Shown: piece after piece, positions 23,405 to 23,515 of the stretch
Position numbering within the stretch: the stretch's first letter is position 1
Layout: each line of letters opens with the position of its first letter
NCBI GenBank assembly: GCA_021773195.1
Contig: JAJFKN010000020.1
Span: 7,570 to 71,569 of the forward strand
Reading direction: 5' to 3'
DNA length: 64,000 nt
Source of the DNA: Gammaproteobacteria bacterium
GTDB lineage: Bacteria > Pseudomonadota > Gammaproteobacteria > JAKBBU01
Made by a program: the position numbers and the translations under genes
The notes under the pieces: generated by a model
Told to the model about the DNA's origin: nothing
Seen by the model: the letters and a program-made list of their open reading frames with translations, nothing else
Databases searched by the model: none

Positions 23405-23515
23405 TTGGTGTGTCGGATTGCCGATAAATCAAGAATATTGCCGATATATGGTTGAATATTGCCGATATATGGTTATAATTAAAGTTAGATTGCCGATATA
23501 TTTAAATTTATAGGT
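23405..23515. promoter_or_regulatory. four direct copies of ATTGCCGATAWA (two within a 21-bp perfect tandem AATATTGCCGATATATGGTTG) immediately upstream of the Fic gene
   Basis: Read directly: GGATTGCCGATAAA, then AATATTGCCGATATATGGTTG twice, then AGATTGCCGATATAT, ending 20 bp before the Fic ATG. Confidence 0.5.

Follow-up and report, generated by a model that had tools for sequence, protein, structure and literature searches.

Four copies of a short same-strand motif, here termed boxes, stand directly upstream of a gene for a Fic-like protein in a 64-kb stretch of a gammaproteobacterial contig (GenBank JAJFKN010000020.1, positions 7,570 to 71,569, the whole of which is referred to as the window). 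Comparison of this locus with its homologues suggests that the protein encoded directly downstream recognises these boxes as its cognate operator array, an interpretation to which we assign a probability of approximately 0.78. Should the protein bind them, repression of its own gene would probably be the consequence. Such arrays accompany the gene across distantly related bacteria, are phased with the turn of the DNA helix, diversify with the predicted recognition helix of the gene's own product and, in this window, enclose the predicted promoter.

The array and its predicted promoter

The motif ATTGCCGATAWA occurs as four exact + strand copies in front of the Fic-like gene, as a preliminary description of this DNA had noticed, with start-to-start spacings of 20, 21 and 31 base pairs (bp), corresponding to approximately two, two and three helical turns. 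Across both strands of the window, these four exact matches compare with a mean of 0.05 in 100 dinucleotide shuffles, none of which reached four. No further copy was found in the rest of the window when up to one mismatch was allowed, such that the proposed presence of the motif at other effector-like genes gained no support within these 64 kb. The last box ends 21 nucleotides (nt) before the ATG at 23522, in keeping with the distance of about 20 bp originally given. Boxes 2 and 3 are held within a perfect 21-bp tandem; this is real as two copies of GAATATTGCCGATATATGGTT, but in the register in which it had been quoted, AATATTGCCGATATATGGTTG, the second copy ends in A, giving only a 20/21 match. 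Boxes 1 and 4 lie outside this tandem, and their flanks differ. The features of the locus, all on the + strand, are as follows.

23417 to 23428, +: box 1, ATTGCCGATAAA, approximately 70 nt upstream of the predicted transcription start
23433 to 23474, +: perfect 21-bp tandem, GAATATTGCCGATATATGGTT x2, with the copy junction forming the predicted −35 hexamer
23437 to 23448, +: box 2, ATTGCCGATATA, abutting the predicted −35 on its upstream side
23452 to 23457, +: predicted −35 hexamer TTGAAT (TTGAAT-16-TATAAT, 10/12 consensus matches; layout recurring in homologous loci)
23458 to 23469, +: box 3, ATTGCCGATATA, occupying the 16-bp spacer between the predicted −35 and −10
23474 to 23479, +: predicted −10 hexamer TATAAT (consensus scan; layout recurring in homologous loci)
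23489 to 23500, +: box 4, ATTGCCGATATA, starting 9 nt past the −10, at approximately +3 to +14 of the predicted transcript
23522 to 24856, +: open reading frame (ORF) of 444 amino acids (aa), with an N-terminal winged helix, a linker and a class-II-like Fic fold with a non-canonical active-site motif; the proposed binder of the boxes
23531 to 23707, +: predicted winged-helix domain, residues 4-62 (H-b-H-H-b-b), from AlphaFold2 models, Foldseek and Pfam winged helix-turn-helix matches in the family
23618 to 23659, +: predicted recognition helix DRTLRFWLQKLAAE, residues 33-46, the first residues of which co-vary with the box sequence across the family
23987 to 24007, +: inhibitory-helix motif SSRLEGN, residues 156-162, fitting (S/T)xxxE(G/N)
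24380 to 24415, +: position of the Fic motif, QAFVDVNKRTAR, residues 287-298, with Gln for the catalytic His and VNK for GNG

The arrangement of boxes around the predicted promoter is not peculiar to the window. A layout consisting of a −35 (TTGAnn), 3 nt, a box, about 5 nt, the −10 and another box recurs in other loci despite their differing box sequences (L097, L099, L001-L003, L027, L031, L023, L007 and L018). The last box extends over the start codon in several homologues; in Thiothrix-type loci, this codon lies inside that box, ATGGCGGATAA.

The predicted −35 hexamer of the window spans the junction of the two tandem copies (GGTT of one, GAAT of the next). Therefore a recent duplication would seem to have both added a box and made the present −35, and may thereby have created or improved the promoter. 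The possibility that the boxes were a strain-specific simple duplication, raised at the outset, thus applies to the 21-bp tandem, which does look recent, but not to the design of the array, which appears ancient. Two further interpretations of the boxes were rejected. They are not a coding repeat, as their spacings are not multiples of three and an in-frame TAG is present at 23486-23488. Nor are they an RNA element, as there was no Rfam match in the window and no excess folding of the intergenic RNA (z = −0.34 relative to shuffles).

Conservation of the array with the gene

Approximately 100 homologous loci were identified at 34-63% protein identity in Gamma-, Alpha- and Betaproteobacteria, Chlamydiae, Bdellovibrio-like bacteria and plasmids. 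A profile search of 1.84 billion representatives found 935 clusters at E <= 1e-30, and the family comprises about 900 clusters at 50% identity. In the first 11 loci, drawn from species-representative genomes at 37-53% identity (Thiothrix, gammaproteobacterial metagenome-assembled genomes, Chlamydiae, Hyphomonadaceae and Bdellovibrio-like bacteria), iterated same-strand boxes lay directly 5' of the start codon in every case (11/11). The box itself differed between them, for instance TGGC(C/G/T)GATA in L001-L005, TGGCCGAA in L006 and TGGCCGTAT in L007. The closest relatives of the window gene, at 60-63% identity, occupy three unrelated neighbourhoods and each have 5-7 boxes of the GTGGCCGATAAA type approximately 21 bp apart. 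Plasmid-borne copies with arrays were also present in cultured strains (Aromatoleum aromaticum EbN1 plasmid 2 and Paracoccaceae pLA6_011); other cultured carriers of the gene include Thiothrix subterranea, Cereibacter sphaeroides and Aeromonas caviae, and CP059265 and OZ257143 are among the complete genomes with homologues.

No partner gene of this family was found. Among 97 loci, no conserved antitoxin, Rep, Par or secretion gene was found, and no neighbour family occurred at more than four; those common to up to four belonged to closely related loci. Hence the Fic-like gene is solitary. In the window it stands between elbB on one side and rsmE/ahcY/metK on the other, with a G+C content of 0.379, relative to 0.488 for elbB, 0.424 for rsmE and 0.457 for ahcY. 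This low value suggests that gene and array were horizontally acquired. The best database match of MetK, at 77-78%, shows that the organism is an uncultured gammaproteobacterium without close relatives on record. A phage origin of the gene was rejected, as no full-length homologue was present in INPHARED and homologues were found at only five loci in IMG/VR.

The same-strand arrangement was quantified at 88 loci, by finding the best 9-mer family, with one mismatch allowed, in the zone from −220 to +30 of the start codon; 481 equal-sized segments from the same loci served as controls. At least four same-strand copies were present at 38 of the 88 loci, relative to 8/481 controls, and at least three at 77/88, relative to 90/481. 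The mean number of copies in an upstream zone was 3.65, compared with 2.11 in dinucleotide shuffles, and 31/88 loci exceeded all 60 of their shuffles. Across the loci with at least four boxes, the local box matched 183 times in the forward and 24 times in the reverse orientation within 9.5 kb of upstream zones, compared with 37 and 32 matches in the remaining 227 kb, where they were at chance level. The 9-mer seeds were drawn from the upstream zones themselves, which inflates the fold-enrichment while leaving the strand bias unaffected. The distances between successive boxes peak at 11-12, 20-21, 29-31 and 40-41 bp, and a 10.5-bp period has a mean resultant length of 0.66 (n=141), with a nominal Rayleigh p of ~1e-27 that is overstated, since the loci are not independent.

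Some distant members with a CGC core have sites in both orientations, such as TGGCGCGAT and TCGCGCCA. These loci are L102 (Aromatoleum aromaticum EbN1 plasmid 2, NC_006824.1 44913-46307), L050, L067 and L095, and the direct-repeat rule appears to relax where the core is nearly palindromic.

The number of boxes ranges from 3 to 8 between loci, and arrays seem to grow by duplication of their units. In the 63%-identical relative L097, an apparent higher-order unit of ~42 bp, read by eye, is present twice at 473-575 (box-aaagcctataa followed by box-aactggaaaa), and its duplication would carry along a copy of the −10-like cctataa(t). The arrays have also left traces in annotation, as gene callers translate upstream boxes (ATGGCGGATAA and similar) into N-terminal MADN/MADK/MADI repeats, for instance at ~3960-3990 of L002, in L005, and in proteins P0016, P0020, P0025, P0027 and P0029; in L098, a 48-aa 'gene' was called inside the array. 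Therefore many database entries of this family probably have a start codon placed too far upstream.

A predicted winged helix in the Fic-like protein

The preliminary description held that no regulator gene was evident next to the boxes, such that the factor would act in trans. It had overlooked a predicted DNA-binding winged helix within the adjacent Fic-like ORF itself. The full-length AlphaFold2 model, built from a 38-sequence alignment, has a predicted local distance difference test score (pLDDT) of 87, with helices at residues 4-11, 20-30 and 33-46, a short strand between the first two, and strands at 49-52 and 59-62; a separate model of residues 1-76 reached 81. Secondary structure assignment by DSSP in both models gives the winged-helix topology (H1-b1-H2-H3-b2-wing-b3) with a conserved basic recognition helix, in which R34 is invariant and T35 and R38 are nearly so across the family. 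A linker at residues 66-70, with pLDDT below 50, leads to the Fic core. Foldseek matched the N-terminal domain to the DNA-binding domains of ArsR, IclR-type HmgR, Zur/Fur, MarR and BlaI/MecI, with template modelling (TM) scores of 0.6-0.71 and root-mean-square deviations of 1.5-3 Å; the E values, at 7e-3 to 6e-2, are modest, as expected for a domain of ~65 residues. When 38 family members were searched against Pfam, HTH_12 was found in 13 and HTH_IclR in 10, with HTH_20, DeoR and other winged-helix families in at most six each.

If this domain reads the boxes, box and recognition helix should vary together: a reader encoded by the gene itself predicts co-diversification, whereas a common host factor would predict a conserved box. 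With the start of helix 3 (DRTLRFWL in the window) aligned against the local box consensus, boxes of the G(G/T)C(C/G)G type were accompanied by Arg, His, Ser or Asn, and never Gln, at helix position 5 (27/27 loci), and boxes with a CGC core (TGTCGCAA, TTGCGCCA, TGGCGCGA and others) by Gln at this position, again in 27/27 loci. Within the G(G/T)C(C/G)G class, helices beginning RTL go with boxes ending GATA (14/14), RSV with those ending GTAT (7/9) and RTI with TGTCCGA(A/T) (2/2). Among the members seen, Phe at helix position 6 (RF rather than RR or RN) is confined to the window, as is TTGCC in place of TGGCC. A code relating single residues to single bases was sought and not found, the correlations being strong at the level of classes, with exceptions. 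This co-variation is supporting evidence, rather than proof, that the protein reads its own boxes. A stronger, logical argument is that the array is nearly always linked to the gene across phyla and diversifies, which makes the gene's own product the most natural candidate for the reader.

A Fic fold with an altered active site

The remainder of the protein has a Fic fold, matching Pfam Fic (PF02661) over residues 209-303 (E 4.8e-7, 31 bits against a cutoff of 24) and FICD by both phmmer (E 3e-6) and Foldseek (E 1e-8). The best full-length Foldseek matches were FICD, SoFic, PDB 7xux and CbFic2, all of which cover the Fic part only, and none of the solved structures among the fold matches has a winged helix followed by a Fic domain. 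In the alignment to FICD, QAFVDVNKRTAR stands where Fic enzymes have HPFxDGNGRxxR, such that the protein lacks the catalytic motif HxFx(D/E)GNGRxxR with its general-base His. This motif is not that of a decayed copy, because Q.F.D.NKR..R is retained in 119/120 homologues; QxFxD[VG]NKR was likewise found in 116 of the 149 best cluster representatives checked. From its sequence, the window protein is therefore best described as a Fic-fold protein, and not as a demonstrable AMPylase. The putative inhibitory helix is that of class II, with SSRLEGN aligning with TVAIEGN of FICD and S[SA]RLEG present in 118/120 homologues.

A His is present five residues before the motif Gln (H-x4-Q-x-F-x-D-V-N-K-R) in 116/119 homologues; the window protein, with Asn at this position (N282, 24365-24367), is among the three exceptions. 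Conceivably, this His represents a relocated catalytic His, in which case the window copy would possibly be inactive. Annotation resources added little: there is no named NCBIfam family for the ORF, PADLOC returned only weak matches to the candidate PDC-S04 that were confined to the Fic domain, and the PHROGs matches were to families of unknown function.

Other repeats in the window

An unrelated iterated motif, GGGAATGACGT, has 12 copies in the window when one mismatch is allowed, relative to 0.78 expected, all on the + strand. They form three intergenic arrays (3539-3654, 46758-46801 and 62218-62268) with spacings of ~14-21 bp, the first consisting of six copies of a 21-bp unit. Because one array lies between convergent gene ends, this motif resembles a family of dispersed intergenic repeats more than it does a promoter element. 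Tandem repeats of 45 bp (x2.2, 20293-20390) and 18 bp (x2, 20482-20517) occur in G+C-rich DNA 5' of the ORF at 20896-22182, the 428-aa product of which had no significant Pfam or NCBIfam match.

A putative self-operator and its alternatives

We infer binding, its repressive sign, its cooperativity and a role for the Fic fold through the following scheme. One winged helix would bind one box, with the flexible linker enabling the subunits of a symmetric oligomer to address sites arranged head-to-tail. As the phasing would place the boxes on a single face of the DNA, neighbouring bound subunits could touch, and the array would be filled cooperatively. Occupation of box 3, in the spacer between the predicted −35 and −10, and of box 4, at the predicted transcription start, would exclude RNA polymerase, resulting in autorepression. 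Lacking the catalytic His, the Fic fold is not expected to AMPylate in the canonical way; more probably, it would supply oligomerisation, the sensing of a ligand such as a nucleotide, or both. The original expectation of a dedicated regulator binding cooperatively is thereby upheld by comparative evidence, namely the helical phasing, the retention of the design in ~100 loci and the overlap with the predicted −35 and −10. Its corollary of a trans-acting factor fares poorly, as the boxes accompany the gene into unrelated genomes and diversify with its recognition helix.

Several observations weigh against this scheme. The promoter and transcription start are consensus predictions, and a scan of the region found three promoter-like sites where shuffling would lead to 5.8 being expected, which is not significant alone. 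By the strict count, 11/88 loci have just two copies of their box. Winged-helix dimers usually favour inverted repeats, rather than the direct repeats seen here. The correspondence between helix and box has exceptions at a fine scale, as L057 and L069 combine RTLQ with GGCGC, and L029 and L038 differ in their boxes despite sharing RTV. It is also confounded by common descent, as the two box classes probably correspond to two clades.

The nearest alternative retains the binding of the protein to its own boxes, but has the array activate transcription, through recruitment of RNA polymerase and positive feedback, or act chiefly to shield the gene, as a roadblock or insulator, from elbB read-through. 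Activation is common among winged helices of the OmpR/PhoB type that bind phased direct repeats, boxes 1 and 2 occupy positions on the upstream side of the −35 that are typical of class I and II activators, and the interval from elbB to the array yielded no terminator-like site. However, many homologues share with the window a box within a spacer of normal length (16-18 bp) and another near +1, the classic geometry of a repressor; the last box lies over the start codon in several homologues; and the one characterised Fic protein with a helix-turn-helix (HTH) is an autorepressor. Hence activation or roadblocking appears unlikely. It is more improbable still that the boxes are the sites of a dedicated regulator encoded elsewhere, acting in trans on this and perhaps other effector-like genes. 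A phased same-strand array would fit cooperative binding by some such factor, and as the search covered 64 kb of this genome, such a regulator or additional target sites could lie beyond it. Yet this would leave unexplained why the array travels with the gene through unrelated phyla and neighbourhoods without a common neighbour, and why the box, instead of being conserved, changes along with the recognition helix encoded by the gene itself; moreover, the motif is found nowhere else in the window, and the adjacent gene encodes a predicted DNA-binding domain.

Two other explanations do not treat the array as primarily a transcriptional operator. It could belong to a mobile replicon as an iteron or centromere-like element, serving as a replication origin or partition site with the neighbouring protein as initiator or centromere binder. 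In favour of this, direct repeats of ~21 bp beside a winged-helix gene recall Rep-iteron origins, repeats on either side of a promoter recall parC/ParR, homologues occur on plasmids, and the centromere-binding protein of pNOB8 was among the fold matches of the N-terminal domain, at rank 25. This is very improbable given the chromosomal housekeeping context of the window gene, the lack of a conserved Rep, ParA/ParM or relaxase neighbour in the 97 loci, the restriction of homologues to 36/72,556 plasmid records, mostly large and non-mobilizable, a Fic rather than a Rep fold, and the embedding of the predicted promoter in a fixed register. Least credible of all is that local slippage duplication, confined to this strain, produced the boxes without their having any function. 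Although the two copies of the 21-bp tandem are 100% identical, including their non-box bases, which implies a recent duplication, and the higher-order repeat of L097 and the variable copy number between loci are suggestive of the same process, boxes 1 and 4 lie outside the tandem with different flanks. Furthermore, across the family the design has been kept while spacers, but not boxes, diverged, and orientation and helical phase have been maintained.

The self-operator therefore remains the preferred explanation for the array. Beyond this, a more ambitious and rather doubtful view is that the Fic fold, deprived of its catalytic His, has been repurposed as a sensor or oligomerisation domain of a protein that polymerises on the phased array, with box and helix having co-diversified into many 'heteroimmune' specificities. 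These solitary, horizontally mobile one-gene modules would then constitute a large undescribed class, acting as ligand-gated switches or as single-gene addiction or defence elements. It is correspondingly tentative that the module is, in that case, something other than an AMPylating toxin under simple autorepression.

Comparison with known systems

Functional studies of Fic proteins have, to our knowledge, dealt almost entirely with AMPylating enzymes, and among the characterised members we know of only one, CccR of Yersinia pseudotuberculosis, that doubles as a sequence-specific transcription factor. PDB 7xux, deposited under the description 'a FIC domain containing protein', became public within days of the paper on CccR and may be this protein. 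CccR is a Fic-HTH toxin and transcription factor that represses its own promoter via sites at the −35 and −10, and its authors considered its HTH to be unique among characterised Fic proteins (PMC9755527). Like CccR, the window protein combines in one chain a class-II-type Fic fold, with an inhibitory helix of the form SxxxEG, and a predicted DNA-binding domain, with sites at the predicted −35 and −10. However, the HTH of CccR is C-terminal and its HPFxDGNGR motif retains the catalytic His192, with which it AMPylates FtsZ (PMC9755527), whereas the winged helix of the window protein is N-terminal and Gln replaces the His. CccR binds two palindromes as a back-to-back dimer, and is an effector of the type VI secretion system (PMC9755527); by contrast, this family has 3-8 phased direct repeats on one strand, and its solitary genes had no secretion context noted, in neighbourhoods screened for shared genes only.

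Other Fic proteins share part of this architecture. CbFic2 of Coxiella burnetii has a C-terminal winged HTH that binds DNA, with no sequence specificity known for it, and acts on histone H3 (PMC10628234). Together with class II Fic proteins of the SoFic/BT_2513 type (PDB 8cil, 3eqx and 3cuc), it resembles the window protein in joining a Fic fold to a winged helix, and these were structural matches of the model; in them, DNA binding is coupled to oligomerisation (PMC10628234). Their domain order is nevertheless reversed, their catalytic motif is canonical, and no cognate repeat array has been reported for them. In Phd/Doc and FicT/FicA, as proposed here, a Fido-fold protein is held down by operator binding at its own promoter, but those are two-gene systems in which the antitoxin binds DNA, whereas this family has one gene, a putative intramolecular inhibitory helix and no conserved partner. 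The NKR of the family motif also resembles that of the Doc motif, HxFx(D/N)(A/G)NKR.

The operators themselves find their counterparts outside the Fic proteins. PhoB/OmpR, Streptomyces PhoP with its 11-nt direct-repeat (DRu) units, the phage P2 C repressor, 186 Apl and BldC all have head-to-tail repeats spaced by whole helical turns, which are reportedly bound cooperatively on one face of the DNA; these belong to unrelated protein families, none of which has a Fic fold. In heteroimmune P2-like repressors, operator and repressor reportedly diverge together as well. Iterons of the RepA/pi type and parC/ParR similarly place phased direct repeats of ~20 bp beside a gene, which in those systems encodes the autoregulated binder; here, however, there is no adjacent Rep or partition gene, the window context is chromosomal and the fold is different. 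The operator design is functionally closest to the direct-repeat systems (PhoB/PhoP DRu, P2 C and Apl), and formally closest to Rep iterons and parC.

The combination of this gene with this box design in distantly related bacteria has not been described before, nor have the family and its boxes, as far as the literature was searched, with incomplete coverage of subscription journals. Orthogonal pairs of box and helix could serve as repressor-operator parts, and the system opens questions as to the role of a His-less Fic fold, the means by which a protein with a symmetric fold would occupy head-to-tail repeats, and the co-evolution of operator and recognition helix. The locus appears to encode an autoregulated DNA-binding Fic protein of a new variant, rather than a member of the CccR family, and to reveal a much larger and phylogenetically scattered family than CccR represents, in which the domain order is reversed, the catalytic His is absent and the operator code is easily read.

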